A DNA stretch of 55,157 nucleotides from a virus (IMGVR_UViG_2721755660_000006:1-55157), one strand, 5' to 3'; counted from the first letter of the stretch, positions 5,079-53,964 are shown. A program made the numbers and translations. Notes: a model not told the origin generated them from the letters alone.

Positions 5079-5255
5079 CGCAATGACTCCATTATGTTAA
5101 TTAACGGAATAATTCTACCATTTTGTGATCTGCGTTACATTTTTGACGCATACAAAATGTATTTATTGATTTATATCAATATACGAAATGTGGTTTTGTC
5201 GGATATTTAAGCCACCGGATGAACCGGACGAGCTAACAAGAATGAGGATTCAAAA

Positions 5256-5504
5256 ATGAAAAACATGTTCAAAGTGGTCTTATTCGCTGCGGCTGTAGCT
5301 CTTACTGGTTGCTCTGTTGACAAAGAGGCTGCATTGCACAACCTGCCAAATAGCGGAGTAATCCCACAAGAAATTGTCTATGATGCTGACGGTCATCTTG
5401 TATATGACACTGAAAAACTTCCGTATACTGGACAATGGTGTCATGAACTCGATCACAACATGCGCCGCATCGGTAGCCCGTCGAATTGCGTAGCTAACTA
5501 CTAA
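5256..5504 (+). CDS. Small lipoprotein moron, possibly Cor-like superinfection exclusion
   Basis: 82 aa with lipobox (LTGC) after a hydrophobic signal; sits between tail fibre and J on the opposite strand; own upstream element and terminator. Confidence 0.6.
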   Translation: MKNMFKVVLFAAAVALTGCSVDKEAALHNLPNSGVIPQEIVYDADGHLVYDTEKLPYTGQWCHELDHNMRRIGSPSNCVANY

Positions 5505-5511
5505 AAGAAAA

Positions 5512-5537
5512 CCCCGCGCGAAGCGGGGTTATTTTTT
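5512..5537. terminator. Bidirectional rho-independent terminator between lipoprotein gene and J
   Basis: CCCCGCGCGAAGCGGGG hairpin flanked by A-run and T-run, between convergent gene ends. Confidence 0.75.
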
Positions 5538-8500
5538 ATGCCCATGATCCTGAGCTTCTCGTAACAAGCGCAAGACCCGCCCTTCTTTCTGCGCCTGTGC
5601 TGGTGTTAGTGTATTCTTCCGTTATTTTTATAGTCACTTTTTGCGCCGTGATCCCTGCGACACAATGGGATACCGTAAATCCGAATTGAGGCGTTGATGC
5701 AGCCCTTACTACTGAATATGTTTTCTTATTGCCATTAATATCAATTGTTACTTTTATGGATGTTGATTGAGAATATTGATAGTAAGTCAGGTGATAAGGA
5801 ATCATCACAAAAACGGTTTTAGAAAGCGAACTCGAAGACGAATCTGTATAAGTTTTAGTAACAGAACGCGATGCACTGCCCGACTGGTCAGGGAATGATG
5901 CTTGAGGTATAAAGTTAGTTGACGCGACATCGCCTACAAAACTTGTAGCCTCTAGCGACCCTTTAAATTTACCGCTATTTGCATACACCGCCCCCCTTAC
6001 CGTTACGTTGTTAAGCTCCGCGCTACCGTTTTTATTAATCATCCAGCCAGCCGAACCGGCTTTATAGTTGGTTGACTGTATTTGCTGTGCAATTTTAGCT
6101 GTAGTGATTGCTGCATCTGCAATTTTAGCTGTCCCTATTGATGCGTCTTTAATAAACGCTTCGCGCACATACATTGCACCATTGGTGACATAGAAAGGCG
6201 TTTGATATGTGCCGTTTGCGGCGGTCATTAACACGAAGCGGTCAACAAGGAAAATACACTGCGATTGAACGTTAGTCCCGCTACCAGTCAGGCCAAGAGA
6301 CATGCCTGTTGCGTATTTTTTGCCGTTGTTGTCGGTGGCAATCTTGATTGACCATGACGCATCAACGTTACCTTTGAAGTCAGTTAACGCTTTCGATGTC
6401 GTCTCGATCGCCGTGGTGTTCCCGTTAACTGTTACTGTAAGCTGATCAATTTTGGTTGATAATGCCTCGTCCGCAGTTGTCATGGTCTGCGACCATTCCG
6501 TGATGCTTGAGTTTACAGCTTCGAAAGACGCTGAGATCTGGCTGAATTTTTCCGCGCTTGATGTTTCATGCGTAGAAAGTGCTGTTGACACTTCAGATAC
6601 TTTCGAATTAATCGTACTGGTAAGCGATGAGTTAAGACTACTTATTGCATCTGTGCGGGCCTTTGTCTCATCTGCAATAGCTTTGTCGATACGGGTCACA
6701 TTGCTTGTAACCTTGCTATCAAGCGTGCTGATGCTTGCATTCACTCCGCTGATAGCTTCGGTTCTTGCGCTCGTCTCATCTGCGATGGCTTTATCAAGAC
6801 GAGAAACACTTGCGTCTGTTTTGTTTTCAAGGCTGCTTATTGAGGCATTTACTCCGCTTATTGCTTCCGTTCTTGCCTGTGTTTCGTTTGCAATAGCTTT
6901 GTCTACTCGCGCTATCTCGCCTTTGATGTTTGAGTCCATCGTGTTCATCTCTGCGGTGATAGTTTCAAGCGCTTCTGCTGTTGCCTGTTTTTCGTCAGCA
7001 ATAACATTGTCTATACGGTCGATTTGCGCTTTAGTCTCACTGCGCCCTTTCTTGTATTGAGCGGTAAGAGTGACGCGCGTATTAGTTTGAGCAAGCGAAT
7101 TATTGATGAGCGCAAGCGATGCGTTTTGTAGGCTTGCTTTTGTCTGTGCCAGTTCGTTATCGACGTTTTCGCTTGATACCTCTAATGAGTCTATTCTTAC
7201 CTCATGTTTGCCTATTTCATCGGCGTTTTCTTCGACTTTTTTATAAAGGTCTTCAGTGTCTTTTTTAAGCGCGTCTGTGTCTGTTTTAAGGTTGTCTGTA
7301 GCTGTTTTAAGGTCGTCTGTAGCTGTTTTAAGGTCTTCAGTTGCACTTTCGATAATGTCTGCGCGGTCGCCAAGATCCTTAATGTCGCTTACCATTTCCT
7401 TGAACTGGTCTGAATTCAGCACGTCTTTAGTGACATAATCGCTGATTTCATCGAAGTTTTCTGTTGGCTGTCCTGATGCTTCTACGAAGTCAGAAACACC
7501 AAAAGCATTACGTGTGCGCACATAAACGTAATAAGTGTGGCCCGTATTCATGCCGCCGAAAGTCCACTGATACCCGCGCCCGGTAAACTGTGCCGCCGTG
7601 GTTATTTTTGCCGGATCTGTGATCTGGTTTTCCCCTGCATAGTAGAATTCGTACGCTGTATCAGTTGTTAGCGTTGTCTTGCTTATCGGGTACACTGTAG
7701 CCTGAAATACACCTGGAACCCAGTTAACGCCTACTGGCGCTGCTGGCGCACCGATAACAAGGTCAACGATACTTTCGGCACCCTTCATGCCAGTATCATT
7801 TCTTCCGCGAACCCCTAAAGAATACACGCCAGCGTCAATGCCATAAAAATCATAACTGTATTTCGTGGTTTCATAGCTTTTAACCACCGCACCATCTGCA
7901 TTATATATGCGGATCTCAAATGTCATACGATGCGTGGTTGTCTGTGTTTCCCATGTGGCGCGGCATTGAATTGTTTCCGATCCAATGTTTACCACCTTCA
8001 GATTTTCAATGTTCGGCACGCGGAAATGATTAAGCGTATCATTGTTGACCTCAAAGATTGCGCCTTCATCGACTATCGCTTGTTTGTTAGGGTCGTGCTG
8101 TGCGGCTTCGATAGTGTATACGCTGTTATTTTCTGTTTCTGCTACACTGGTGATCCGGCACAAAACGGGTTTTGCCACTTCAGTCGATACAGCAAAAACA
8201 GTGCCGTTTCTAATCCATGACGGGGCCGCCGCCAGTGTGATTTTGTTTCCGCTCACCCCGGTGATCTGATGTTTTTTAAACTTGCCATCGCTATCAAGAA
8301 GGCTGATTGTATCCCCAGCGGCAATATATTTAGCATCAACCTTGTCTACAGTTATTACTTTGCCGTTGTTCGCAACGATGCGACCGCCTAAGCGAGCGCC
8401 AGCGCGGTTATTATCGAGGATCTCGATGATATCCCCTGGCGTAAAGTGAATCGCGTCACGGGCCATTTTAAACGTGAATTTTGACGGCTCGCGTTTTGCT

Positions 8501-11790: not shown

Positions 11791-11919
11791 TTTCTCACCT
11801 TCTGATTTTGTGATCTGCGTCACGCCAAATCATACCAAAATGGATTGATCGCGGTTTATACAATATGTATATTTTACTCAAACGGAAGCACAGTTAACAA
11901 AATGGCGCGGAGGTGTGAG

Positions 11920-12767: not shown

Positions 12768-12790
12768 TATAAACCCCGCTTCGCGCGGGG
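12768..12790. terminator. Bidirectional terminator hairpin between island A and a minus-strand small gene
   Basis: CCCCGCTTCGCGCGGGG hairpin between convergent ORF ends. Confidence 0.55.
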
Positions 12791-12796
12791 TCGTGT

Positions 12797-12997
12797 TTAT
12801 ACGCCATCAAGCAAAAATAATACTTCCCTACCCTCTCTCGATCTGCATCCGACATACCCGTCACCAACATCATGAAGATACCAGATCTCGCCATTATCAG
12901 CCTTTACAGTAAGATCGTTGATTTCATAGTCGTCAAACAATGTAAAAGCGCCAGTGCGGTCCACTACACAAATACCATACATATTAACCTCCATCAT
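12797..12997 (-). CDS. Hypothetical small protein downstream of gpM
   Basis: 66-aa ORF whose start overlaps the M stop region (coupling-like arrangement). Confidence 0.45.
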   Translation of the reverse strand: MMEVNMYGICVVDRTGAFTLFDDYEINDLTVKADNGEIWYLHDVGDGYVGCRSREGREVLFLLDGV

Positions 12998-13359
12998 CTG
13001 ACGACCTGCTCAAACGTTGCGTTTAGCGTGTACAAAGACCCGTCTTTAGTCATGCTCCATCGGCGGCAAACAAAAAGCCTTTGCACGTTATCCATCGACG
13101 GCGACCAGTAAAAAGCCTCGACAGCGCCGCGCGCCCTCAAGAATGCTTCCGCCTGGATCGCTACATTCCCACCATCGCCGCATCCTGCACTACTGCCTTT
13201 AAAAACCAGGGTGTAACTATCCAGTAATGTGTTAATCCCTTTCGCCTGGCGTTGTTCATACCCATCACCAAGTTTAATGACAGATACGTTTGGCTCCCTG
13301 GTCACGCTGTAGCTTCTTTGCGGCGTCCATCTGAAAACTTCCGGCATAAAACCCCCCAT
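12994..13359 (-). CDS. Minor tail protein (lambda gpM-like)
   Basis: 121 aa; aligns with lambda M (FRW, GDGY-QR, C-terminal FEQVV). Confidence 0.85.
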   Translation of the reverse strand: MGGFMPEVFRWTPQRSYSVTREPNVSVIKLGDGYEQRQAKGINTLLDSYTLVFKGSSAGCGDGGNVAIQAEAFLRARGAVEAFYWSPSMDNVQRLFVCRRWSMTKDGSLYTLNATFEQVVR

Positions 13360-13515
13360 AAGTTACATTTTGTATATATATTTACGCGCTTCTACGCGAA
13401 AAATGAGATCTTCATCACAATGATTATAGCTAGTTTACAAAATGGCTTCACATAGTACGAAACAAGATGTATACATAAAGCAAGAAGAAAGCAGTACCAA
13501 CGAAGGAGGCCCAAA

Positions 13516-13688: not shown

Positions 13689-13943
13689 ATGAAACTGGTA
13701 GCGATTGACAAAAATCTGAAAGCACAGAAAAACGCGCCGGGACATGTAGTCAAAAAAGCAAAGGAACTTTTGAACGCGTTTTTAAACAAGAATGCGTCAC
13801 CCAAAAAATTGAAAGACGGTTACGGCTACGCCTTCCGCGCCAATTTAGACTGGCGAGTCTATAGCCAGGATCTGAAAGAGTGGGTGATTGTTGAACACCA
13901 TAAATTCAATGAATTGTCTGGCGTTCGCGGTTGCCATAAGTGA
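13689..13943 (+). CDS. Hypothetical protein, possibly RelE/ParE-like toxin fold (moron island B, gene 2)
   Basis: 84 aa; C-terminal KKLKDGYGYAFRANLDWRVYSQDLKEWVIVEHHK resembles the RelE/YafQ-type pattern by eye; unverified. Confidence 0.5.
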   Translation: MKLVAIDKNLKAQKNAPGHVVKKAKELLNAFLNKNASPKKLKDGYGYAFRANLDWRVYSQDLKEWVIVEHHKFNELSGVRGCHK

Positions 13944-14242: not shown

Positions 14243-14266
14243 AACCCCGGCATTGTACCGGGGTTT
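14243..14266. terminator. Terminator hairpin ending moron island B
   Basis: CCCCGGCATTGTACCGGGG hairpin followed by a T-rich run; the tape measure gene begins beyond it. Confidence 0.6.
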
Positions 14267-16618: not shown

Positions 16619-16775
16619 GATTTAACCTCATACAAAATGTGATCTATGCCTCTATTTTATACAAAATGGCTTTACTGTAACGACTCCATTTTGTATAAAG
16701 AGGCTAAAGGAAAGGGATAGAGCAAAGGGATTTAAAAGGCCGGATTAACCGGGGGAAGCGAAGGAGGATAAGAAA

Positions 16776-32040: not shown

Positions 32041-32136
32041 TTCTTGTCTCCCCTTCCGTCTTTCCTTGACTTATATATAACAAAATGGCACTGCCTGAAC
32101 AATGCCATTTTGTAAACTTTGCGGGGTAGATCACGT

Positions 32137-38293: not shown

Positions 38294-38452
38294 AATGCTC
38301 TCTCCTTTTCAGGTGATTTCTACGCATTTCAGCGCTGCCGGATTTTTAAAGAGCATTTTGTTTGCTTGAAGTATACAAAATGGATACGTGCTAACAAGGT
38401 GTAAAGCGCCATTATGTGACATTCATCACACAATGACGCCATTTTGTAAACT

Positions 38453-40743: not shown

Positions 40744-40752
40744 TACGCCCCC

Positions 40753-41933: not shown

Positions 41934-42031
41934 TTTGCTTCCTCCGCACCGTAAACCTTTTGATTTTGGCTTACAAAACGGACATGCGATCACAATACAT
42001 AATGTATATTTATGTAATCGGAATCACTCGG

Positions 42032-42652: not shown

Positions 42653-42665
42653 GATATTTATCCTT

Positions 42666-43179: not shown

Positions 43180-43442
43180 ACGCCGAACATCCCATTCAGT
43201 CCGGCGAACAATTTCCGCCAGTGGTTTTCAACATAAGCCCGGAACGGCTTAACGCGAACATTGCGGGCCTTCAGTTCAATCTTGTCGAAGAAACGCGGCT
43301 CTATAATTGTTCCGTCCAGATATTTAACTAGGATCGGGCGCTCAAGATCGTTATATGTCTTGTTCAGCACAACCAGACCAGGGTCTTTACGGTATTCCGG
43401 GAGCACAACAAGATCACCCGTTTTGATATTCATGAATGGCAT
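43170..43442 (-). CDS. Hypothetical protein
   Basis: 90 aa from the ATG overlapping the upstream mini-gene stop (TGATG). Confidence 0.45.
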   Translation of the reverse strand: MPFMNIKTGDLVVLPEYRKDPGLVVLNKTYNDLERPILVKYLDGTIIEPRFFDKIELKARNVRVKPFRAYVENHWRKLFAGLNGMFGVWL

Positions 43443-43558
43443 CACATCACCCCGCCGATATAGCTAATAATTGCCGCAGTCGCGCCAGCTATTACCACCA
43501 TGAAGACGAAAGCGACCACACAGAAAACAGCCTTGACAGTATTTTTGTCGACTCGCAT
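43442..43558 (-). CDS. Mini membrane peptide (38 aa)
   Basis: MRVDKNTVKAVFCVVAFVFMVVIAGATAAIISYIGGVM; GAGGT Shine-Dalgarno; coupled to flanking genes. Confidence 0.45.
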   Translation of the reverse strand: MRVDKNTVKAVFCVVAFVFMVVIAGATAAIISYIGGVM

Positions 43559-43565
43559 ATAAACC

Positions 43566-43673
43566 TCACATGTCAGTAATCAGCTTAACAATCGCCACAG
43601 TGATATAGAGTGACGCACTAAGGTAAACAGCCGCCACAGCAACGGCGGCGGATAACATTGCAATCTTTTTCAT
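43566..43673 (-). CDS. Mini membrane peptide (35 aa)
   Basis: MKKIAMLSAAVAVAAVYLSASLYITVAIVKLITDM; ATG overlaps the upstream stop (ATGA). Confidence 0.45.
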   Translation of the reverse strand: MKKIAMLSAAVAVAAVYLSASLYITVAIVKLITDM

Positions 43674-43894
43674 TTGCCACCCTCCGCAATGAACTTATCA
43701 AGCCATTTGTTATTAGCCAGCCGTTCGGCATCTTCGCCGAATGATTTACGTTCGCTTAATTCCTGTCGAGTAGGGAAAGGCCATTTATCAACCCAGCCCG
43801 CAGACGTCTCGAATTCGTACAGCCCGCCGCCGAAAGTGATAAGCTCATCAGCGCCGTCAGGAATTTCTCCGTCAACTTCTTTATCTTCGATCAT
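43670..43894 (-). CDS. Hypothetical protein
   Basis: 74-aa ORF. Confidence 0.45.
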   Translation of the reverse strand: MIEDKEVDGEIPDGADELITFGGGLYEFETSAGWVDKWPFPTRQELSERKSFGEDAERLANNKWLDKFIAEGGK

Positions 43895-43908
43895 GATTTA
43901 ATACCTCA

Positions 43909-44193
43909 TTAATCGTTAATAACCTGACCCATACGCCCGCGATATTTGCGCATACGTGGATCGACATATTCAGGCCAATGCATATCATCAGCTTTCTGTA
44001 GTGGGTAAAAACTTGCCTGCCAGTTGTCGAACCATATTTGCTTTGCGTACAGGTCACTAAATCTTTTCGCCATTCGATCCGCTGCCGTGCCGCATAAAAA
44101 AAGCCCGCGATCGATTTGATCACGGGCTTCTCTTAAAACTTGCTCTTTTGTTCGCGGCGGCGGCGGTGCTTTTAAATAATCACCCATCGCCAA
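43909..44193 (-). CDS. Hypothetical protein
   Basis: 94-aa ORF directly downstream of ssb. Confidence 0.45.
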   Translation of the reverse strand: MAMGDYLKAPPPPRTKEQVLREARDQIDRGLFLCGTAADRMAKRFSDLYAKQIWFDNWQASFYPLQKADDMHWPEYVDPRMRKYRGRMGQVIND

Positions 44194-44202
44194 CCTATTG
44201 AA

Positions 44203-44619
44203 TCAGAACGGAATATCATCGTCGAAGTCCATCGGCGGCGGATTATTCCCGTTATTATTTTGAGGCGGTGGCGCTTTCTGCTGCTGGCCTTGCTGCTGGC
44301 CTTGTTGGTTAACGTTCATGAATTCAAATTCGTTAACCGCCACTTCTACCGCCGTCCCCTTCGTGCCGTCGTTCCGGTCATATTGCCGAACATCTAGGCG
44401 ACCGCTTACCACTATTTTTCCACCCTTGCGGATATGTGGCGCTAATTTTTCCGCACGCTCACCAAATACCAGGCAAGTGACCCACATTGTCCGCTTATTA
44501 TCGCCGTAGCCATTCGTTACAGCTAACGGAAAACTACCAATCGCTTTCCCGTTTTGTGTGTAGCGAACCTCCATATCATTACCGATATTCCCGCCCAGCG
44601 TGATTGAATTTAAACTCAT
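44203..44619 (-). CDS. ssb: Single-stranded DNA-binding protein
   Basis: 138 aa; OB-fold-like N-terminus, Gln/Gly/Pro/Asn-rich linker and acidic tip MDFDDDIPF. Confidence 0.9.
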   Translation of the reverse strand: MSLNSITLGGNIGNDMEVRYTQNGKAIGSFPLAVTNGYGDNKRTMWVTCLVFGERAEKLAPHIRKGGKIVVSGRLDVRQYDRNDGTKGTAVEVAVNEFEFMNVNQQGQQQGQQQKAPPPQNNNGNNPPPMDFDDDIPF

Positions 44620-45260
44620 TAACCCATCTCCCCGTTAAGCTCTGCTACCCGGATGTCATAAACATCTTTTGCCTTGATTCGATGCTCCGATCCTTCCGGT
44701 AGTAATTTCCAGCATTTGCCAAATATTTCACGCAGCTTGTTAGCGTCCTGCGCTTTCGCTGCTGCATCACAGAAACGTGCTAATACTTCATCAGGATTTG
44801 GCGGCGCTTTATTCTGCTGCGGTTGTTGTTTTGGTGGGTTTTTCTGTTGTCGCGGCTGCTGGCCTGTCTGCTTCGCGTAAGCATCAGTATCAGGATCGCG
44901 AGCATCATCTATACAGAATAAACCGTTCAAAGCATATTTACGCGCGTAACTTGATGTTGCTCCTGTTAGCTGGCTGGCGTCCATACCCTTCTTGCTTTCT
45001 TCCTCCCTGGCATAAGCAGTTACCGCTATTACGTCTTCACCGTCGCTTAGCGTCGCCGTTGCTTTCACATAATAGCGATTGCCGATCAGGACAATTTCAT
45101 CACTAACAGTCAGCGTGATATTTTGAAGCAGTGGTTTAACCGCCTCTAAAATATCCTCCGCCGACCTGTAATTATATCCACCAAAATTATTACGCTGATT
45201 TTTCGGCGCGTTCAGCGTTTGCTGAATCGTCCATAGCTTTTTATGTAACTCTGTTTTCAC
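44619..45260 (-). CDS. erf: ERF-family single-strand annealing protein
   Basis: 213 aa; NFGGYNYRSAEDILEAVKPLL signature and Gln/Pro-rich C-terminal region; probable GTG start. Confidence 0.8.
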   Translation of the reverse strand: MKTELHKKLWTIQQTLNAPKNQRNNFGGYNYRSAEDILEAVKPLLQNITLTVSDEIVLIGNRYYVKATATLSDGEDVIAVTAYAREEESKKGMDASQLTGATSSYARKYALNGLFCIDDARDPDTDAYAKQTGQQPRQQKNPPKQQPQQNKAPPNPDEVLARFCDAAAKAQDANKLREIFGKCWKLLPEGSEHRIKAKDVYDIRVAELNGEMG

Positions 45261-45379
45261 TATTTAATCTCCCGTGCTGTTAACACTATGTATAAGGCTT
45301 TATTCGCGGCGCTCCACATTTCGGCATCGTGAAGCATTTCCGCTACTGCCAGTTTGAATTGAAGCGCCTGAATAACCAT
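45260..45379 (-). CDS. Hypothetical mini-protein (39 aa) upstream of erf
   Basis: MVIQALQFKLAVAEMLHDAEMWSAANKALYIVLTAREIK; its stop overlaps the erf GTG start. Confidence 0.35.
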   Translation of the reverse strand: MVIQALQFKLAVAEMLHDAEMWSAANKALYIVLTAREIK

Positions 45380-45409
45380 AATGTCATCTCCGGATGTTTA
45401 CATTTTGTA

Positions 45410-45661
45410 TTAATGATAGCGGACTTTATCCAGGGGTTTTTCCCCTAAATGTCGTGGTTGCGTTGCGTGGTAGTAGCTGCCGCTTTCATTTTCCGTATAC
45501 CATTTTACTGATCCTTTGCGACGTTCTTTAATGCTATTTGGTTTGCATCTTTCCTCGTTTGCAAATCGAATAGCTTTATCCACATTGTCTGTTTTATTGA
45601 TTGCAGGTGATGATTTTCTTTCGTTTTCTCTTTTTATCCTTCTGCGTTCCCTGGCATTCAT
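45410..45661 (-). CDS. N-like antitermination protein candidate (arginine-rich motif)
   Basis: MNARERRRIKRENERK resembles the lambda N arginine-rich motif (MDAQTRRRERRAEKQ); first gene leftward of the cI-like gene. Confidence 0.45.
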   Translation of the reverse strand: MNARERRRIKRENERKSSPAINKTDNVDKAIRFANEERCKPNSIKERRKGSVKWYTENESGSYYHATQPRHLGEKPLDKVRYH

Positions 45662-46200
45662 TTTGCTATCACATTTACCATATATAATTGTAACGCTCAT
45701 AATCTGATCTCCGTATATCCTTGATGATACTTAATAAAAAATCATCTTCGTTAATTGCCGCACTTCCAGCGGCTGACCAGATTGTTAATGAGCGGCTTAA
45801 CATCTTTCAACTAATCCCGCAATCATCGCCGTTCCCGGCGTGACCTTGCTCACTCCAAGCAAGCTGACTCGTCGCCTTGCGTGCGGTTTCGTGGGGGATG
45901 TAACGCTTTAAACACCCCATGCGCCTTGTTATCAGTGCCGCTTTCGGTCCCCAATCGGGGAGTTACTCCACGGTTGACAAGGTGTTAAGCCTGATTTTTA
46001 AAGTGCCAGGAAGTTGCTTTTGTTACCTGCGCCCTTCCTTTGACTCGCAATATACGCCCCGTAAAACATCGAGTCAATCCATTTTGTATACTTTTTTAAA
46101 ATATTTTATATGTCATTGATATTTAAATAATAAATAACGTTTTCTGTTTACGTTTTGGTGTTTTCCAGGCAAAGAAAAGCCGCCATTCGGCGGCTAATGT
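45662..46200 (-). promoter_or_regulatory. cI-to-N intergenic region (candidate pL/nutL-type region)
   Basis: About 540-bp non-coding gap between the repressor and the N-like gene; inferred from lambdoid organisation only. Confidence 0.3.
46170..46198 (-). terminator. Rho-independent terminator after the cI-like gene
   Basis: GCCGCCGAATGGCGGC hairpin followed by TTTTCTTTG on the minus strand. Confidence 0.65.
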
Positions 46201-46848
46201 TTATGGCAGGTTTACGATCTTCGCATCAACCACCACGCCTATAATTTTTGATTCTGGATTCATAGGGATTGGCGGATACAGCGGATTCAGCGAACGTAAA
46301 AGCCTTTGACCTCCATCAATAATCAACTGTTTAAACGTCGGTATCTGCCCTTCCTCAAGCTGGGCTATAACCAGTTTGCCGTCAATAGCTGGCGCGTGCG
46401 GGTCAACAAGTATCATCGTCCCCGCCGGGATGCTCAACCCCTGCGGCGCGTTCATTGATTCACCTTTGGCAACCAGCCAGTAACTATCATCTGAACAAAT
46501 AACGCTAGTCGTAACGTGTGGTAATGCTGATCGCCTTGTGTCATCCATATTGTTTACTGTGTCCTTCCAGTCAATAACCGGGTAACTACCTAAATCACGC
46601 GGCGGTGCGGCCTGAAGTGTATTAGAAACAGAATCATCAATGACCATACCATCATGTGTAACAGTGAACTGACGACGCCCAAGCGCCCGCATAATCCGCG
46701 CAATATCTTCAAGATTTGGCTCGCGGCGACCGTTAAGCCAGTGTGACAGGCCGCCTTTAGTTATCCCCATGAGATCTGCGAGTGAATCCTGACTCATGCC
46801 CTGCGCCCGCATGAGCTGCTTTGCTAAGTCATACCATTTTGTTTTCAT
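46201..46848 (-). CDS. CI-like repressor (HTH plus S24 LexA-type peptidase domain)
   Basis: 215 aa; N-terminal HTH (MSQDSLADLMGITKGGLSHWLNG) and C-terminal S24-like autocleavage region with GESM and DGKLVIAQL. Confidence 0.85.
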   Translation of the reverse strand: MKTKWYDLAKQLMRAQGMSQDSLADLMGITKGGLSHWLNGRREPNLEDIARIMRALGRRQFTVTHDGMVIDDSVSNTLQAAPPRDLGSYPVIDWKDTVNNMDDTRRSALPHVTTSVICSDDSYWLVAKGESMNAPQGLSIPAGTMILVDPHAPAIDGKLVIAQLEEGQIPTFKQLIIDGGQRLLRSLNPLYPPIPMNPESKIIGVVVDAKIVNLP

Positions 46849-46869
46849 GTCGCTACCCTATAACCTCAA

Positions 46870-46980
46870 AAAGTTTGATGCAAGTCACAAAACGTGTATT
46901 TTAAGCCTTGATCTTAAAATTCCATTTTGTAAACTTGCAGACAAGGTAAGGCCATACTTGCAAAGACGCAAGGAAAAAGA
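46870..46980. promoter_or_regulatory. Operator-like palindromes in the repressor/cro-position intergenic region
   Basis: Repeated half-site ACTTGC/GCAAGT: GCAAGTCAC near 46873, ACTTGCAGACAAGG near 46930, ACTTGCAAAGACGCAAGG near 46959. Confidence 0.4.
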
Positions 46981-47154
46981 TAACGGAAGGCACAAAAAGG
47001 CACTTACCTTAAGCTCTTTAAAAATCCGGTGTCGCTGCGAAGCGAAAAACAAATATCACGCAACGGCGGGATCTGTTGAGCGGTCAGTCACTGCTATCTA
47101 ATGCTAATGGGATGCCCGCCCGCGCGTTCACTCTAACCATAGGAGAAAAACAAG

Positions 47155-47409
47155 ATGAGTATGCACATGATGAATGAAGCATGGAACGTAAAACTTAACA
47201 GCCCGATCCAAAAACTTGTCTTAATTGCGTTTGCAGAAAAGGCAGACAACAAAGGCCGCGCACATGCTTCACGCGAAGAGATCGCAAAAGTGTGCGAACT
47301 GCCACTGCATACTACTGTTGACGCATTAAATTCATTGATCCGCAAAGGATTCATTAAACGCGCTGACGAATACGGCGACATTTATGACATTGCATTGCCG
47401 GAGGAATGA
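47155..47409 (+). CDS. HTH DNA-binding protein in the Cro position (replisome-organiser-type winged helix)
   Basis: 84 aa; KLVLIAFAEKADNKGRAHASREEIAKVCELPLHTTVDALNSLIRKGFI; stop 3 nt before the next gene. Confidence 0.55.
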   Translation: MSMHMMNEAWNVKLNSPIQKLVLIAFAEKADNKGRAHASREEIAKVCELPLHTTVDALNSLIRKGFIKRADEYGDIYDIALPEE

Positions 47410-47412
47410 TCT

Positions 47413-48471
47413 ATGAAGTGGTTTAAGCATGATAGCGATGCGAACCGCGATGAAAAACTTCAAAACGTTTTATTAGATTATGGCCTGGAAGGGTACGGGC
47501 TTTATTGGTATTGCCTAGAACTAATAACTTATGACGTAGATCAGCACAATCTAACTTTTGACCTACGACATGACGCAAGAATAATTGCGCGAAACGTCGG
47601 ATCTACTGAAAAACGTATAGAAGAAATGATGAAATACTTCATCGAAATTGGTTTGTTTGAATGTTCTCAAGGCCACATAACTTGTTTAAAGTTATTGAAA
47701 AGGCTGGACCAATCAATGACTTCTAAAAGCGCTTACAGGGCCGCCATAAACACAGCGAAGGAGCAATTAAAATTAGAAAAGTTAATCAATCCAACACAAA
47801 AAGGTCATGATAGGGTCATGACCGGGTCAGGAAAGGGTCATGAATTAGAATTAGAATTAGAAGTAGAAAAAGAAAGAGAAAAAGATATATACACTTCGTG
47901 TATTGTCGAAAATGAACAAAAAATGGTCAATCAGGATGGCGTAAACGAAGCGGCATTGCGTTGCCTTGCCTTCTACAACGACAAGGCAGGATGCAAATGT
48001 CGTGATGCTAAGCCATTCGTAGAACTACTGACAGAAACAAAAACACGTAAAGCGTATACGGAGGATGAGATCACATTAGTGATTGAGTGGGCTTTAACCC
48101 AATGGCGTAGCCGTGGTGGAGTACCTAAGCCTATCAACATTTGCCGGGTAACTAAGTTTGATGGGTATTTGGCTGATGCTGAACAATGGCGCAAGCTATC
48201 AGCTACTGTAAACGCTGCCGACGTGGTGGAAGCATTTAACAGCACGTTTGACGGCCTGTTACCACCTGCCGAACTGGATCGGGATCTTGAACGCAAGATC
48301 TATGCGTTCACTGACTACCTGAAAGACAAAAGCATTAACGGCTTTGTCGCCTACTTCGAAACGTTCAAAAACACGGCTTCAGATTTTTACTTCGGCAATG
48401 GCTTCACTGCGACACTTGATTTTCTGCTTAAACCAAAAACGCTACGTGATACGCGCGCTGGCGTTCTTTGA
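47413..48471 (+). CDS. Replication initiation protein / replisome organiser (lambda O-like role)
   Basis: 352 aa; N-terminal MKWFKHDSDANRDEKLQNV...GLEGYGLYWYCLELI typical of phage replisome-organiser N-domains; internal iteron block. Confidence 0.7.
   Translation: MKWFKHDSDANRDEKLQNVLLDYGLEGYGLYWYCLELITYDVDQHNLTFDLRHDARIIARNVGSTEKRIEEMMKYFIEIGLFECSQGHITCLKLLKRLDQSMTSKSAYRAAINTAKEQLKLEKLINPTQKGHDRVMTGSGKGHELELELEVEKEREKDIYTSCIVENEQKMVNQDGVNEAALRCLAFYNDKAGCKCRDAKPFVELLTETKTRKAYTEDEITLVIEWALTQWRSRGGVPKPINICRVTKFDGYLADAEQWRKLSATVNAADVVEAFNSTFDGLLPPAELDRDLERKIYAFTDYLKDKSINGFVAYFETFKNTASDFYFGNGFTATLDFLLKPKTLRDTRAGVL
47795..47895. promoter_or_regulatory. Candidate replication origin: four GGGTCATGA-type iterons plus AT-rich repeat tract inside the organiser gene
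   Basis: AAGGTCATGATAGGGTCATGACCGGGTCAGGAAAGGGTCATGA followed by ATTAGAATTAGAATTAGAAGTAGAAAAAGAAAGAGAAAAAG. Confidence 0.55.
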
Positions 48472-48603
48472 CCAATCACGATCCGCAAAAATCCAAAATT
48501 ACCCACAAAACAACCTCATCAGCGAGCTAAATCGCATGGGGGCTACACTTGCTTACCTTTTTGCGATTAGCTTGTTATGGAGCGTTTCAGAGAGGATTTA
48601 GCT

Positions 48604-48705
48604 ATGAACGGTAAACGCATGTTCGCCCTGGCTTTCGCGATCGCGATGGCTATCGCTGTTAACGTCGCCTTGTTCGGCGGCTTATATCTACTAGTTAATC
48701 CATAA
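48604..48705 (+). CDS. Mini hydrophobic peptide (33 aa)
   Basis: MNGKRMFALAFAIAMAIAVNVALFGGLYLLVNP; GAGAGGA Shine-Dalgarno. Confidence 0.4.
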   Translation: MNGKRMFALAFAIAMAIAVNVALFGGLYLLVNP

Positions 48706-48866
48706 CTACCCTTCTACCTTAAAAATCGAAAATTAGCCACCTGATTGCGCTTCTGGCGCAAAAAAGACACTGCACCCTTACAAGTGGGTTACGCGGTGGA
48801 TTTTTGCGTTGTAGCGCGTTTTACGGAAAATAAATATACATTCTGTAAACCGGAGGAATTAACGTT

Positions 48867-49985
48867 ATGTCACAAAGAAAGATCAGCGATGAACAGTTAA
48901 TCGCTGAACATAATAACGGTCTGACGTATAAACAGATCGCAGAAAAATATGGCATGGCAAAACGCAACGTCGAACGCCTGGGCGCACGGTTGGCGAAACG
49001 CGGTTTAATATCCACGCGCCGCGCACCGGGTTTTGGCGTCAATGCTGAGTCATTGCTCGTCGATAAGGATGGCAATGTGATTATGCGCTGGATTAAAACA
49101 GCCCGTGACCGCGATGAAATGGAAATGCTAATGCAATCTGCTTGTGACGCCTTCACGGAAGAAATACCCCGCGCGGAGGCCGTGCCAGTGCCGGAAATTG
49201 ATTTTCAAAAAAGCCTGGCCCTTTATCCGGTATTCGATCTGCATATCGGGGCGCTTGCTCATAAAGCTGAATGCGGTGAGAGCTACGACACCGGGATCGC
49301 TGAACGCGTGCTAAATGACTTCTTCGACTACGCGGTAGGCGCTGCGCCAATGTCTGAAAAGGCTGTTTTGCTTCTCGGCGGTGATGTGCTTCACACTGAC
49401 GGCCTGTTACCAGTGACGCCATCAAGTAATCACGTTTTAGATTGTGATTCACGCTACGCAAAACTGGTTTATGTGGCGATCCGGTCGGTCCGGCGTGCGG
49501 TCGGGAAGATGTTACTAAATCATAAGGATGTCGAGATCCAGGTATTATCCGGTAATCACGACCAATCAGGTATGATCTGGCTACGTGCTGCGCTGGCGGC
49601 TTTTTACGAAGATGAACCGCGTGTGACGGTTGATGTGTCACCTGCTATCGTCCATCACACACAGTACGGCAAAACATTTCTTGCTTACCACCACGGGCAC
49701 ACTATCAAAAAGCCAGAAAATTTACTTTCTGCCTGCGTTTCTGACTGGCGGGAGGATTTCGGCAAGTCGTCGTCTGTTTACGCTCATTGTGGACACTGGC
49801 ATCACCAACGGCTGATTGAATCATCGTTGGGCGTTGTTGAGTACCACGGCACGTTAGCTGGCAAAGACGCTTATTCAACGAATGGCGGCTGGCGGTCGCG
49901 GCGGCTGGCTGCGGTAATAATTTACAGTCCTGATCATGGGGAAATCGGGCGCTTTGTTTATTACCCTGAATATTCCATTTTGTAA
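48867..49985 (+). CDS. Calcineurin-like metallophosphoesterase with N-terminal HTH-like domain (Mre11/SbcD-like motifs)
   Basis: 372 aa; motifs DLHIG, GGDVLHTDG, GNHD, HHGH, GHWHH; N-terminus LTYKQIAEKYGMAKRNVERL. Confidence 0.65.
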   Translation: MSQRKISDEQLIAEHNNGLTYKQIAEKYGMAKRNVERLGARLAKRGLISTRRAPGFGVNAESLLVDKDGNVIMRWIKTARDRDEMEMLMQSACDAFTEEIPRAEAVPVPEIDFQKSLALYPVFDLHIGALAHKAECGESYDTGIAERVLNDFFDYAVGAAPMSEKAVLLLGGDVLHTDGLLPVTPSSNHVLDCDSRYAKLVYVAIRSVRRAVGKMLLNHKDVEIQVLSGNHDQSGMIWLRAALAAFYEDEPRVTVDVSPAIVHHTQYGKTFLAYHHGHTIKKPENLLSACVSDWREDFGKSSSVYAHCGHWHHQRLIESSLGVVEYHGTLAGKDAYSTNGGWRSRRLAAVIIYSPDHGEIGRFVYYPEYSIL

Positions 49986-50003
49986 ACCGGAGGCGATGCC
50001 ATA

Positions 50004-51425
50004 ATGATAACCGAACAAGTAAACTCATTGCGGCAAGAAAGAGAATCAGCGGTTATCGGTGGCCTGCTGTTAGGTGGGCTTACTCCTAACGCGCAAGATG
50101 TTCTCGCTACGCTTGATCCTGAAGTGTTCACTATTCCGCTGTATAAGCGGGCTTTTGAAATTATCCGGGCGCAAGCCAGAAACAGAAATCTTATCGACGC
50201 CTTGCTGGTTGGTGATGAGATTGGCAACGAAAATTTTGTACCGCTGATGCAAACGGCGCGATCGTGTCCTTCTGCTGCCAATCTGAAAGGATATGCGCGA
50301 CTACTACAGGAAGAACACCAGCGGCGGCAAATGCTGGAACTAATGGAAGACATTCGCTACAAACTGGAAACGGGGACGCTTGAAGTCGTCAGGGAGACGA
50401 TGAAAGATTTTGATTCCCGGTATTCAAAATTAAAGGTAACAAAAGATCAAATTATCCCGGTGCTGTTGCGCGATGCGGTCCAGGAATACACGGAAGTGTT
50501 AAGTAAACGCATGGAGTGTGGCGTGAACTCTGACAACATCAAAACAGGGATTGACCCACTCGACGAAATGTTAGGCGGCATTAACGCTACTGATCTGGTG
50601 CTTATCGCCGGACGCCCAGGGTCTGGTAAATCGGCGTTGGCGTTGGCAATTGCCCGCGCGGCGGCTGAACGTCCATACCCTGGCGGCGAAGGTCAGCGGG
50701 TCGGCGTTTTGCTGTTCACGCTTGAAATGTCGCTCGATCAGATGACTGAACGTGCTATCGCTGGCGCTGGGAACTTATCAACGGATTGCCTACGTAATCC
50801 GGTAAAACTGGATGACGAAGGTTGGGCGCACGTCGCCCAGGGAATGAGTGCCCTTGCCGATCTCGATGTGTGGATTGTTGACGCATCGCAGTTAACGGTC
50901 GAGGAAATACGCGCCACCGTCGAACGGATGAAACAGGACCATCCTAACCTGGGGATGGTAATGATTGACTACATCGGGTTAATGAAGCTGGCTAAGGCCG
51001 AACGTCATGATCTCGCCGTAGGGCAATTGTCGTGGTCATTGAAAATGATGGCGAAAGAGTTGCGCGTGCCAGTGGCGGCGCTGGCGCAATTATCCCGCCG
51101 CGTTGAGGAACGACCGAACAAGCGCCCGAACAATTCTGATCTGCGTGATTCCGGTAATCTTGAACAGGACGCAGACCGGATCATCATGGTCTACCGCGAC
51201 GGCTACTACAACGAACAATCGGTTGCCCGCGAATATATGGAGATCATCGTTTCAAAAAACCGTCACGGGAAAACGGGGACTGTTTACCAGCGGTTTGACG
51301 ATAACGGCAACATCATCCCATGCGACCAGGCCCGCGCGGCGTCCGCTTGCATTCAGTCAATGCAACAACGTCCGGCGGCAAGTCGATTCTCCACACGAAA
51401 CAGCCAGAACAACGCATCTTTTTAA
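50004..51425 (+). CDS. Replicative DNA helicase (DnaB-like)
   Basis: 473 aa; Walker A GRPGSGKS, then MIDYIGLM and SQLSRRVEER motifs. Confidence 0.85.
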   Translation: MITEQVNSLRQERESAVIGGLLLGGLTPNAQDVLATLDPEVFTIPLYKRAFEIIRAQARNRNLIDALLVGDEIGNENFVPLMQTARSCPSAANLKGYARLLQEEHQRRQMLELMEDIRYKLETGTLEVVRETMKDFDSRYSKLKVTKDQIIPVLLRDAVQEYTEVLSKRMECGVNSDNIKTGIDPLDEMLGGINATDLVLIAGRPGSGKSALALAIARAAAERPYPGGEGQRVGVLLFTLEMSLDQMTERAIAGAGNLSTDCLRNPVKLDDEGWAHVAQGMSALADLDVWIVDASQLTVEEIRATVERMKQDHPNLGMVMIDYIGLMKLAKAERHDLAVGQLSWSLKMMAKELRVPVAALAQLSRRVEERPNKRPNNSDLRDSGNLEQDADRIIMVYRDGYYNEQSVAREYMEIIVSKNRHGKTGTVYQRFDDNGNIIPCDQARAASACIQSMQQRPAASRFSTRNSQNNASF

Positions 51426-51503
51426 TTAACTTGAGCAAACGGCTTACCGGAAAGTTGACCGCTTTCTGGTGGCTGTTTTCGCGCTTAAAACGAGGCGAAA
51501 ACA

Positions 51504-52052
51504 ATGAGCATTGAACTTGAAGCAAAAATTATCAATATCCTTGAACTTGATGGCATCGCAACAATGCACCAGCTACGCCAGAAAACCGGATTATCAGCGG
51601 AATACGACGAAGCCGGATGCTTGCCGGAAACAGTTAAACACCTGATCGACACTAATCTGGTTGAGCGGGTGTATACATATTTTGGCCCGCGCCGCCGCTT
51701 GCTGGGCTATCGAATTAAATATTTATACGAACAACGACGCGAGCGTGTAGCCGCGTTATTTACTGACTACAACGTTAGAAAGCGAATGAGAGATATTAGC
51801 GCGGAAACTGGCATTCCGTGGAATTACCTTTCGCGCACGCTGCGTTTAATGGTGCTGGATGAAACGCTTTGCATAGATACCAATAAACACGGCCTTAATT
51901 TTTACTCACTGTTTAAACCTGGTCGCTTTGGTCACGCTAATGATCTCGCGTTTGATTTTGACAGCCGCCTGAACGAATACCGGAAAAATAACGGCCTGCT
52001 ACCGGATAAACCAGTATTTGAGATCGAAAAACTCAACGGGGAACGGGGTTAG
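51504..52052 (+). CDS. Hypothetical protein
   Basis: 182-aa ORF downstream of dnaB-like gene. Confidence 0.5.
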   Translation: MSIELEAKIINILELDGIATMHQLRQKTGLSAEYDEAGCLPETVKHLIDTNLVERVYTYFGPRRRLLGYRIKYLYEQRRERVAALFTDYNVRKRMRDISAETGIPWNYLSRTLRLMVLDETLCIDTNKHGLNFYSLFKPGRFGHANDLAFDFDSRLNEYRKNNGLLPDKPVFEIEKLNGERG

Positions 52053-52056
52053 AATT

Positions 52057-52263
52057 ATGAGACGGGTAATCTTTTATTCAGTTGAAACGTTTGTCGACGA
52101 TACGCGCATTTATTATCCGTGGGAAGTATACGACGCAAAGGTGTATACACCGCCACTGATGCGGAAATATAAACACGTAAAATTTAACCGGGTTTTCGTG
52201 CCAATGCGCGATGCATTACGGGCGCTGCGTGGGGAATTAAGAAACACAATGCGGATTGTGTAA
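52057..52263 (+). CDS. Hypothetical protein
   Basis: ORF from internal Met MRRVIFYSVETF. Confidence 0.4.
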   Translation: MRRVIFYSVETFVDDTRIYYPWEVYDAKVYTPPLMRKYKHVKFNRVFVPMRDALRALRGELRNTMRIV

Positions 52264-52272
52264 GGGGGAATT

Positions 52273-52500
52273 ATGAACAAGGATTTAGAATTGACCGTGG
52301 AGGATTTAAGCACGATCGCGGAATACAAGCGCGGCGGTGATCCTGATAAACCTGTTACGGTTGATATGAAATATTTAAAAGGCGCTTTTATGACTTCTTC
52401 AAGATTGATAAGTCTTAAAGCAATTATAAAGGCGCGCTGGGAAAGTTGGCAGGAATACAAAGCGAAAAATAAGGTGAAAAGAAATAATGCGGCAAATTAG
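52273..52500 (+). CDS. Hypothetical protein
   Basis: 75-aa ORF. Confidence 0.45.
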   Translation: MNKDLELTVEDLSTIAEYKRGGDPDKPVTVDMKYLKGAFMTSSRLISLKAIIKARWESWQEYKAKNKVKRNNAAN

Positions 52501-52915
52501 ATTTGAGATAGTCAACGACGCCGTGAAAGAAAACGCTATCAGGCAGATAAGAGAGATCCAGCCTGATAGCAAAAGCCCGCTGATAATTACCATCCAGGAG
52601 AAAACCCGCTCGCTAAGCCAAAACGCGTTGCTTTGGGCGCTGTTAACCGACATTAGCGATCAGGTTAATTGGTACGGTAAGAAGCTGTCGCCGGAAGACT
52701 GGAAAGCGGTATTTACTGCCGGGCTTAAGAAATATGGCGTCGTCCCTAACCTGGATAAATCCGGCTTTGTTGTATTGGGGACATCAACCAGCCGGATGAG
52801 TAAATCAGAATTCAGTGAACTAATCGAGCTGATCTACTCGTTCGGCGCTGAACATGATGTTCAATGGTCTGGCGATACGAAATTAAACGAGGAATTCATA
52901 AAACGCTGGGGGTAA
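52487..52915 (+). CDS. ninB: NinB (Orf-family recombination mediator)
   Basis: 142 aa; near-collinear with lambda NinB (ITIQE--RSL-QN--LWA-L-D-S-QV-W-G, VVPNL, GFVV-G-STSRM, KRWG). Confidence 0.85.
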   Translation: MRQIRFEIVNDAVKENAIRQIREIQPDSKSPLIITIQEKTRSLSQNALLWALLTDISDQVNWYGKKLSPEDWKAVFTAGLKKYGVVPNLDKSGFVVLGTSTSRMSKSEFSELIELIYSFGAEHDVQWSGDTKLNEEFIKRWG

Positions 52916-52917
52916 TA

Positions 52918-53094
52918 ATGGCGCGTTATTACATGGCTAAACCTACAGGAATTTTGTATAAGGTTGATGGCGAATATGTTTATTACTTCCACAACCAGGC
53001 GCGGGAGTGGCGATTGTGTCACGCGCACTTCAAGCACGAAATAGAAAATCACCCTGAATACTTTATCAAAGTTGACAATGTAACGGTGGCGTAA
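52918..53094 (+). CDS. Hypothetical small protein
   Basis: 58 aa from MARYYMAKPTG. Confidence 0.4.
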   Translation: MARYYMAKPTGILYKVDGEYVYYFHNQAREWRLCHAHFKHEIENHPEYFIKVDNVTVA

Positions 53095-53095
53095 T

Positions 53096-53746
53096 ATGGC
53101 AAATAAAACACCTCGTGCAATAGGCACAATGCTTCACAGGTTCCGCGTTGATATTCCGCCTTTCGAAGTGACAACGTTTTCGAGCTATTACGATTTTGGT
53201 ACGGAGTATTACGCAGGATCTAAGGTTGGCGGCGAATCTTATACGTTGATGGCTAATACGTGGCGCTTTATACGTTTCTCTGAAAAGGATGATGACGGTA
53301 TGAATAAAGAAAGTGAAATCATTGATGAATTAATCGAAGATGAGCGCCATGATTGCGATGCGCCGGAAGTTACGGAATGGAAACCAGGAGAAAAGCCGCC
53401 GTGCGGCGTGTGGCTTGATTGTATTGGATTAGCAAGTGATAGAGTGATTGATGTCGTTAAGTTTTTCTACCTGGGCGATAAGTGGTCTATTGCTCACAGT
53501 AAGTTAGAAACGGGTATAGAAACACCGATTGCATGGAAACAATACTCATACCGCATTCACATTGACCCGAAAGAAAAAGCAATGACACGAATTGCGTTTG
53601 CGCTGGCTGTTGAGGTTATTGGTGAAGATGCGGCAAAAGAGATTAACTTTAACCGCGACAACGAATTTTCGCGCGATTGGCGCAATATGGCAAAAGCCAT
53701 TATTAATGGCGATATTCCTTTTACTAATTACAATGGTGATGAGTAA
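53096..53746 (+). CDS. Hypothetical protein
   Basis: 216-aa ORF. Confidence 0.5.
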   Translation: MANKTPRAIGTMLHRFRVDIPPFEVTTFSSYYDFGTEYYAGSKVGGESYTLMANTWRFIRFSEKDDDGMNKESEIIDELIEDERHDCDAPEVTEWKPGEKPPCGVWLDCIGLASDRVIDVVKFFYLGDKWSIAHSKLETGIETPIAWKQYSYRIHIDPKEKAMTRIAFALAVEVIGEDAAKEINFNRDNEFSRDWRNMAKAIINGDIPFTNYNGDE

Positions 53747-53964
53747 TGGATAAGATCGGGACAATACTTATTAACCGTGAGCAAGTGCAAAAAATGTTAG
53801 GCGGGCTTAGCAAGTCCGCCTTTTTTAAGCTCGTTAAAAAATGGAAAGAAGCGGGAACTCCTTTCCCTGAACCTGTAAAGGGGATGCCAGCATTAAAGCG
53901 CGGGGGATCTCTTTACCGTTATCAGGACGTTATTTCATTTTGTAAATCTATGGGCTTCATGTAA
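53746..53964 (+). CDS. AlpA/Xis-like small DNA-binding protein (candidate excisionase)
   Basis: 72 aa; LINREQVQKMLGGLSKSAFFKLVKKWKEAGTPFPEPVK pattern; adjacent to integrase, 3-prime ends overlap convergently. Confidence 0.45.
   Translation: MDKIGTILINREQVQKMLGGLSKSAFFKLVKKWKEAGTPFPEPVKGMPALKRGGSLYRYQDVISFCKSMGFM

Follow-up and report, generated by a model that had tools for sequence, protein, structure and literature searches.

The CI repressor of bacteriophage λ binds two groups of operators (OL1-3 and OR1-3), which lie at early promoters on both sides of the repressor gene, and the same operators are used by λ Cro. Immunity repressors whose operators are dispersed over the phage genome have been known until now mainly from two proteins unrelated to CI, the monomeric C1 of phage P1 and gp71 of phage L5. 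For P1 C1, 22 operators with an asymmetric 17-bp consensus, ATTGCTCTAATAAATTT, have been described (PMC8546580). The gp71 protein of L5 (cluster A) is a monomer composed of a helix-turn-helix (HTH) and a unique "Stoperator" domain; its sites are strictly polar with respect to transcription and block elongation (PMC9283540). Here we analyze a 13-bp motif, CCATTTTGTAWAC, scattered through the viral sequence IMGVR_UViG_2721755660_000006:1-55157 (the whole stretch of 55,157 nucleotides is referred to below as the window). The motif is probably the operator of Rep, the CI-like immunity repressor of the prophage contained in the window, and would form a dispersed operator network; the corresponding family operator would be the 13-bp dyad ATAC-N5-GTAT.

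The first-pass annotation of the window had described this motif as highly over-represented, with an expectation well under one copy, and every count agreed with that description. The 10-mer CCATTTTGTA occurs nine times as an exact match on the two strands (13436-, 16660-, 16686+, 32105+, 38374-, 38439+, 46079+, 46922+ and 49975+), compared with a mean of 0.21 and a maximum of two in dinucleotide-preserving shuffles. The 13-mer with at most two mismatches gave 22 matches versus 3.8 expected. In an unbiased k-mer scan with third-order Markov expectation, the motif word and its sub-words were top-ranked at each k from 8 to 12 (CCATTTTGT: 15 observed versus 0.84 expected, P=2e-14). The position matrix derived from the copies, whose information-rich core spans ~13 bp, has 29 matches in the window versus 4.2 in simulated sequence. 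Although intergenic DNA constitutes only 10.6% of the window, 24 of these 29 matches are intergenic (binomial P=2.5e-19), and they form 12 separate loci located between 5.1 and 50 kb.

The centre-to-centre gaps of nine close pairs are 29, 30, 29, 29, 29, 24, 37, 68 and 68 bp; the 29-30 bp spacing is found in five of the nine, regardless of whether the sites are divergent, direct or convergent. The inverted pairing, the intergenic siting and the overlap with gene ends at 49975 and 53935 were as originally described, and nearly all coordinates were correct to within a few bases, but some of the listed copies are variants rather than exact matches. Sites are present at 5117, 13365, 45400, 48839 and 53935, in the forms CCATTTTGTGATC, ACATTTTGTATAT, ACATTTTGTATTA, ACATTCTGTAAAC and TCATTTTGTAAAT, respectively. 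The reverse copy placed near 32081 is CCATTTTGTTATA at 32076-32088, and the presumed single variant at 11838 resolves into two sites, at 11858-11870 and 11893-11905.

Nearly the entire window is occupied by a prophage, since the 3′ portion of abgT, a host gene (Pfam ABG_transport, E=3e-197), covers positions 1-1446, which also places the insertion at abgT, and an integrase gene is located at 53922-55121. The abgT gene is among the integration sites listed for phages of the mEp010/mEp013/mEp021/mEp044/mEp515/mEp554 type, named the "mEpimmI" group, whose members fall into nine assigned genera and form one immunity group with a 96%-similar repressor (PMC11893012). The prophage is mEp021-like, with 95% identity to phage MagusPhagus and 87-90% identity to mEp010, mEp013, mEp021, mEp044, mEp515 and mEp554. 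In the part compared, positions 36000-55157 are a 100% match to the genome of Escherichia coli 09-00049 (NZ_CP015228.1; reverse strand, from 1701715 on). A plus-strand operon begins with a small HTH gene (47167), continues with the replication genes and ends at ninB. The rep gene is on the minus strand (46848 to 46201), as is a long series comprising the N-like gene, recombination genes, ninG-rusA-Q and the lysis, head and tail genes; the tail region is interrupted by four short plus-strand accessory cassettes, i.e. placed on the reverse strand with respect to the late genes.

Conservation in related phages, named in the first description as a check on the motif, was found in a comparison set comprising 46 repressor-gene loci and 31 loci of a tail gene, drawn from viral contigs. 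At early as well as late sites, the motif hardly changes across ~45 mEpimmI loci, whereas the adjacent bases vary (e.g. the six spacer bases upstream of 38371, the loop of 16657-16686, and the flanks of 13433 and 11893). CCATTTTGTA has 71 copies in 545 kb of mEpimmI tail-region loci, and none in 803 kb representing 49 loci of other phages that share the same tail gene. Together with the variable flanks, these numbers argue that the motif is under selection in this lineage and does not simply reflect base composition.

The protein most probably recognizing the motif is encoded by rep (46201..46848, minus strand). This 215-amino acid (aa) equivalent of Rep021/gp15 contains Pfam HTH_3 and Peptidase_S24 domains and is annotated as a LexA family protein. 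It matches λ CI over its full length, including the C-terminal domain (3bdn, E=1e-19), and by this similarity it is a genuine λ CI homologue. When expressed, the Rep homologue of mEp021 blocked all six mEpimmI phages tested, and it was considered that Rep021 may recognize operators other than those of λ; the Rep021 operators were not defined in that study (PMC11893012). A literature search with the motif string returned only unrelated papers among those listed.

Read on the opposite strand, the motif is GTWTAC-AAAAT-GG, which makes it an apparent ATAC-N5-GTAT family site with a single consensus half. The window also contains three perfect ATAC-N5-GTAT dyads (5150, 11858 and 41995) and two dyads with one mismatch (13363 and 45398), while in the ~12 most conserved copies nnCC replaces ATAC in one half. 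Two forms of the site are thus present in this phage group: a full dyad (e.g. ATACAAAATGTAT) and the commoner one-sided form nnCC-ATTTT-GTAWAC, of which CCATTTTGTATACT is an example.

The link between this sequence and Rep comes from homologous repressors (~40-50% identical to Rep) encoded by prophages whose genome layout differs from that of the window. At their loci (L134/L135, L136, L137, L138 and L139), each intergenic region flanking the repressor gene carries two or three ATAC-N5-GTAT sites. Loci L136-L138 have four exact dyads each, versus 0.2-0.3 expected, and none elsewhere in the locus. The copies of L136 are ATACGTTTCGTAT, ATACATTTTGTGT and ATACAGTTCGTAT on one side of the repressor gene and ATTCCTTTTGTAT, ATACATTTTGTAT and ATACGTTTTGTAT on the other. 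One-sided sites are found within the operator triplets of these relatives as well (AATACAAAATGGAAC in L134 and AATACAAAATGGTAG in L139).

A second, independent sample consisted of 24 loci found through helicase alignment. All six loci (6/6) whose repressor has a recognition helix of the type [ST][KQ]G[GA][VLI][SG]H[WY] contain 3-5 exact dyads, almost all of them in arrays adjoining the repressor gene or 2-3 kb off. The remaining 18 loci, with another repressor type or no Rep match, have no dyads, except for one locus with a single dyad. The operator type co-varies with the recognition helix of the CI-like repressor across 17 loci. Of the two functions first suggested for the motif, that of a regulator binding site is the better supported: it matches the operator type found beside homologous CI-like repressors in 11 phages, and it lies on early promoters. 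The helix type and ATAC-N5-GTAT arrays occur together in 11 loci (L134, L136-L139, L184, L189, L197, L198, L200 and L203), and the central five bases are A/T-rich for helices of the K type and G/C-richer for those of the Q type (e.g. ATACCGTAGGTAT). Loci L048-L050, which encode distant Rep relatives (38% identity), lack the motif but belong to unrelated Chi-rich lambdoid phages and were set aside as uninformative. A helicase scan of genome contigs gave no match.

The sites distinguished in the window, grouped by locus, are as follows.

Locus 1 (5089, 5118, 5150), divergent region between the tail-fibre-like gene (1596-5078) and the lipoprotein gene (5256-5504):
5150..5162, no strand, perfect dyad ATACAAAATGTAT
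5118..5130, plus strand, one-sided variant CCATTTTGTGATC, 30 bp from the 5150 dyad
5089-5101, weaker copy CCATTATGTTAAT, 29 bp from the 5118 site
Locus 2 (11858, 11893), between tail gene L and the cassette that has an ANT/KilAC-domain gene at its end:
11858..11870, no strand, perfect dyad ATACAATATGTAT, over the overlapping -10s of two face-to-face promoter-like sites
11893..11905, minus strand, one-sided variant CCATTTTGTTAAC, upstream of tail gene L and sharing bases with the -35 of promoter-like TTGTTA-N18-TAAAAT (11900..11871)
Locus 3 (13363, 13433), between a tail gene and the ParE-like toxin cassette:
13363..13375, no strand, near-dyad TTACATTTTGTAT, 68 bp from 13433, facing the reverse-strand toxin cassette
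13433..13445, minus strand, one-sided CCATTTTGTAAAC, with an invariant TATAAT (13428..13423) 4 nt downstream, before tail gene 12994-13347
Locus 4 (16628, 16657, 16686; spacing 29 + 29 bp), divergent region between the tape-measure gene and a secreted-protein gene:
16628..16640, minus strand, variant ACATTTTGTATGA, first of the three, touching a Shine-Dalgarno sequence
16657..16669, minus strand, one-sided CCATTTTGTATAA, within promoter-like GTTACA-N16-TAAAAT (16681..16654), before the tape-measure gene
16686..16698, plus strand, one-sided CCATTTTGTATAA, directed at the reverse-strand gene 16928-17341
Locus 5:
32076..32088, minus strand, one-sided variant CCATTTTGTTATA, 29 bp centre to centre from 32105
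32105..32117, plus strand, one-sided CCATTTTGTAAAC
Locus 6:
38371..38383, minus strand, one-sided CCATTTTGTATAC, in promoter-like TTGTTA-N16-TATACT (38397..38370), 16 nt upstream of the nutR2 boxA
38439..38451, plus strand, one-sided CCATTTTGTAAAC, in opposite orientation, 68 bp from 38371
Locus 7:
41969..41981, minus strand, variant CCGTTTTGTAAGC, conserved in 26 distinct relatives
41995..42007, no strand, perfect dyad ATACATAATGTAT, ~24-26 bp from 41969
Locus 8:
45398..45410, no strand, near-dyad TTACATTTTGTAT, at the stop codon of the N-like gene, conserved in relatives
Locus 9:
46079..46091, plus strand, one-sided CCATTTTGTATAC, 1 bp upstream of the -35 of the rightward early promoter
Locus 10:
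46922..46934, plus strand, one-sided CCATTTTGTAAAC, over the -10 of the leftward early promoter
46885..46897, no strand, degenerate dyad TCACAAAACGTGT, 37 bp from 46922, an arm of the 27-nt inverted repeat I1
Locus 11:
48838..48850, plus strand, variant ACATTCTGTAAAC, immediately before the Shine-Dalgarno sequence CGGAGG of a 372-aa replication-region gene
Locus 12:
49975..49987, plus strand, one-sided CCATTTTGTAAAC, immediately before the Shine-Dalgarno sequence CGGAGG of the gene for the DnaB-like helicase, sharing bases with the end of the gene before it, unchanged in 25 distinct relatives
Possible extra copy:
46545..46557, plus strand, CCATATTGTTTAC, inside the rep coding sequence (repeat family D1), function uncertain

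The degenerate dyad at 46885..46897, located just upstream of a candidate -35 for the promoter of rep itself, is a weak assignment made by eye against the family consensus. At 38371 the -35 TTGTT, the motif and boxA are invariant in 32 distinct relatives, in which the six spacer bases vary. The hairpin at 38407-38438, between the two sites of locus 6, corresponds to the predicted terminator TERM_4 (t4) of mEp021; it resembles two degenerate motif copies, but is better read as this terminator.

On both sides of rep the sites overlap or abut early promoters, each with a nut boxA downstream. The leftward early promoter, TTGATC-N16-TAAACT (46908-46935), directed toward nutL and the replication genes, carries the motif (46922-46934) over its -10; relatives conserve the -35 and the motif, apart from motif position 6 (C, T or A), but not the intervening spacer. 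The rightward early promoter, a near-consensus TTGACT-N17-TATATT on the minus strand (46077..46049), is directed toward nutR1 and the N-like gene. Its relatives conserve both hexamers and the motif, which is on the opposite strand, and have a variable promoter spacer. A repeat search of the immunity region revealed the motif as the clearest conserved element common to both early-promoter regions; they share one other, weaker direct match (D2, 75% identity), and the inverted matches are boxA elements. A different palindromic operator was also considered for this region, but the motif was the best shared direct repeat, and CTTGC/GCAAG pentamers near the leftward promoter are without counterpart at the rightward one.

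The boxA elements of the three nut sites are located as follows.

47013-47029, boxA of nutL
46006-45990, boxA of nutR1
38354-38343, boxA of nutR2

The motif itself was rejected as a nut site, as the boxA elements are distinct sequences and the motif lies upstream of them, on both strands. An identical 17-mer boxA-like sequence, GCTCTTTAAAAATCCGG, is shared by nutL (47013-47045, plus strand) and nutR2 (38354-38338, minus strand), and a hairpin, TCGCTGCGAAGCGA, is located downstream of the nutL boxA. The nutR1 region contains the boxA-like sequence GCACTTTAAAAATCAGG (46006-45990, minus strand), and a second boxA/boxB-like pair, CGCTCATTAACAA with the hairpin GCCGCTGGAAGTGCGGC, precedes the N-like gene (45794-45757, minus strand).

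The position of the motif relative to the conserved promoter hexamers is not constant. It spans about -20 to -8 at 46922 and 38371, -29 to -17 with respect to TATAAT at 13433, covers the -35 at 11893, and occupies -49 to -37 on the other strand at 46079. Such variation between the -10, the spacer, the -35 and the region upstream of it speaks for an operator and not for a fixed promoter element. It also bears on the other function proposed in the first-pass annotation, that of a promoter element. In a fuller version of this reading, CCATTTTG plus TAWACT would be a special -10 with an upstream extension, used by the host RNA polymerase with or without a phage activator or sigma-like factor and defining a class of co-regulated promoters. 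A part of this proposal holds: several promoter-like sites use the right-hand end of the motif, TAWACT, as a -10-like hexamer, and it has the key A2 and T6 of a -10. Moreover, a conserved -35 is found 16 nt upstream at 46908-46935 and 38397-38370, and most copies are directed at a downstream gene start on their own strand. However, a fixed promoter position is lacking (13433, 11893 and the promoter of the N-like gene), the copies at 48838, 49975 and 16628 touch Shine-Dalgarno sequences and leave no space for a start site, and three perfect copies (32105, 38439 and 46079) run into gene 3′ ends. A Pfam scan of 20 window proteins revealed neither a sigma-like factor nor an activator, and homologous repressor genes are surrounded by operator triplets of this very sequence type. 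A mainly promoter-related role is consequently unlikely. Sites of host factors were also compared with the motif by eye; none of those considered (the sigma-32 -10 CCCCATNT, sigma-54, FliA, IHF, OmpR, TyrR, CpxR, PhoP, ArcA, GalR/LacI-type half-sites and Tus Ter) is in register across the copies.

Somewhat less probable still is that the main binder is another phage protein, either a Cro-like lytic regulator or the 80-aa HTH_36 protein, which would lower the early promoters during lytic growth. The use of common operators by λ Cro and CI provides a precedent, and a small HTH gene (47167-47409, Pfam HTH_36) is divergent from rep. This neighbour is not conserved together with the motif. In the syntenic P0008 phage (L131-L133) it is replaced by an unrelated HTH_3 gene, yet the dispersed motif and its placement beside the early-promoter -35 (L131) are kept; the Rep protein of this phage is 55% identical overall and has an identical recognition helix, ITKGGLSHWLNGRREPN. 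This favours Rep as the binder over the neighbouring small HTH protein, as does the fact that the feature co-varying with the operator type is the helix of the CI-like repressor. Shared sites would in any case be compatible with Rep binding and would merely add a second binder.

A reading without a regulatory role, in which the motif would mark recombination or mosaic boundaries or be left over from a small mobile cassette by which the accessory genes were acquired, is highly improbable. Several copies are indeed located at junctions of late genes and accessory cassettes, and the 32076/32105 pair of the window is not present in mEp021 or mEp515. At the cassettes, however, the copies are on the promoter side only, the far flank being a bidirectional terminator, and others are found at core early promoters and at nutR2. 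In addition, the 13-mer is strictly conserved amid variable flanks, which points to selection on the site itself. Least probable of all are RNA-level signals (sites of termination or processing, or targets recognized by an antisense RNA or an RNA-binding protein): the pairs 16657/16686 and 32076/32105 could fold into ~11-13 bp stems with ~16-nt loops, and several copies directly precede ribosome-binding sites, but many copies are single, pairs of every orientation have the same 29-30 bp spacing, the potential stems lack a following T-run, no Rfam family match was found anywhere in the window, and the copy at the promoter of the N-like gene is upstream of the transcript start.

With the motif read as a dispersed Rep operator, we infer not only binding but also its cooperativity and the sign of regulation at individual sites. 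In the lysogen, Rep dimers would occupy the sites, and neighbouring dimers would probably cooperate across the gaps of 24-37 bp (mostly 29-30), as those of λ CI do. Because the sites lie over or next to sigma-70-type hexamers, binding would shut the corresponding promoters. These would include the two early promoters beside rep, the internal promoter ahead of nutR2, ninG, rusA and Q, and the promoter-like sites which restart the late operon (tape-measure and tail genes) after each of the four accessory cassettes. Promoters serving the cassettes in the same divergent regions would also be concerned, whether repressed, spared or activated. Upon loss of Rep, all of these promoters would open together. 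The copies at the Shine-Dalgarno sequences of the two replication genes (48838 and 49975), where a promoter would have no room, may act as roadblocks or auxiliary sites.

Several observations weigh against the assignment of the motif to Rep, the whole case for which is built by comparative sequence analysis. A CI-type dimer should favour a dyad, but most of the dispersed copies are one-sided, with an unexplained invariant CC. For homologous repressors, the loci extend 6-10 kb to either side of the repressor or helicase gene, and dispersed sites may be present beyond these limits. The only recognizable site at the promoter of the N-like gene is at -37 to -49, the position from which λ CI activates PRM, and repression of the rightward early promoter is therefore not assured. 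Finally, the lipoprotein gene 5256-5504 is of a type tied to superinfection exclusion (PMC11893012) and is expected to be expressed in lysogens, yet it is preceded by an operator-bearing region. If the lipoprotein is needed in lysogens, Rep must spare or activate its promoter, like CI at PRM. The product of this gene (plus strand) is a lipoprotein, MKNMFKVVLFAAAVALTGC..., with the lipobox LTGC, and it was matched by position alone to gp81 of mEp021, a lipoprotein which, when expressed, excluded mEp021 and mEp515 (PMC11893012).

A broader model, which we put forward only tentatively, is that a CI-type repressor has expanded from a switch with two operator regions to genome-wide silencing. Each divergent region of the late operon would then be a small copy of OR, at which Rep shuts the promoter of the structural genes and permits or activates the accessory gene (lipoprotein, secreted protein, toxin or ANT-domain protein). 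In that case, a dozen operator clusters would lock the specificity of the repressor, which would account for nine genera sharing one immunity group and a 96%-similar repressor (PMC11893012). The conservation of immunity among mEpimmI phages, which is unusual, would find a concrete explanation in the operator network.

The proposed Rep operators resemble those of λ CI in the architecture of the repressor (HTH_3 + S24, a true homologue), in their presence at early promoters on both sides of the repressor gene, in the distance of a few helical turns between neighbours, and in the classical ATAC-N5-GTAT triplets that homologous repressors have in lambdoid prophages. They differ in being distributed among ~12 loci over 50 kb, including the late structural operon, instead of OL and OR only; in the predominance of a single consensus half; and in having one strong site per early promoter versus three. 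By homology, the sites would belong with the λ-type CI operators, yet they break the confinement to OL and OR. P1 is likewise a temperate phage of E. coli in which the operators of the immunity repressor are spread genome-wide over many transcription units, but its 17-bp site has another sequence, whereas the site described here is 13 bp long, derived from a dyad and assigned to a CI/LexA-like protein. The L5 stoperators are similar in being asymmetric 13-bp sites present in more than 20 copies (here 29 matrix matches, 24 of them intergenic) at promoters and in short intergenic spaces. Unlike in L5, strict polarity is absent, as same-strand intergenic regions contain five sense copies (32076, 38371, 41969, 48838 and 49975) and three antisense copies (32105, 38439 and 46079), and most sites are located over promoter-like hexamers; nor does gp71 share the HTH_3 + Peptidase_S24 architecture of Rep or its full-length homology to λ CI. 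Judged by their contact with Shine-Dalgarno sequences, 48838, 49975 and 16628 are candidates for stoperator-like sites, and a block of elongation is a candidate function there. By analogy, the dispersed Rep sites would work like the P1 C1 or L5 networks, while belonging to neither system.

These results propose operators for the mEpimmI phages, a common group of E. coli phages of the human gut, with ~20 defined sites available. If Rep binds them, a textbook CI-type repressor would directly control many dispersed promoters, including one before Q and several in the tail operon. The ATAC-N5-GTAT site combined with the recognition-helix rule could also help to annotate the immunity regions of many enterobacterial prophages.

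Some further features of the regions described above were noted. A -10-like TTATAG is located 9 nt before the ATG of rep (46846-46863, minus strand), and a TATAAT precedes the start of the L138 homologue by ~7 nt; given these distances of 7-9 nt, the rep mRNA is probably leaderless or nearly so, like that of λ cI. In locus 2 the two face-to-face promoter-like sites are TTGATC-N17-TATATT (11845..11873, plus strand) and TTGTTA-N18-TAAAAT (11900..11871, minus strand), with predicted starts ~16 bp apart; the -10 of the latter is only TAAAAT or TACAAT in relatives. One of the sites within 11845-11900 would serve tail gene L and the other the cassette ending in the 82-aa ANT/KilAC-domain protein. 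The reverse-strand cassette of locus 3, inside the tail operon, encodes an 84-aa protein with a ParE-like toxin domain (13689-13943, plus strand; PF24732, E=1e-7), and the product of 16928-17341 (plus strand) has a signal peptide. Bidirectional terminator-like hairpins end the accessory cassettes at 5510-5530, 12772-12791, 14243-14265 and 17349-17365. The stem AACCCCGC...GCGGGGTT is almost shared by the first two, and 14243-14265 is similar, which suggests a repeated cassette-end module. The gene at the portal position (24050-25423, minus strand) bears the RefSeq name "anti-CBASS protein Acb1 family protein", while its mEp021 homologue is annotated as the portal protein; the Acb1 label is probably a naming artefact.

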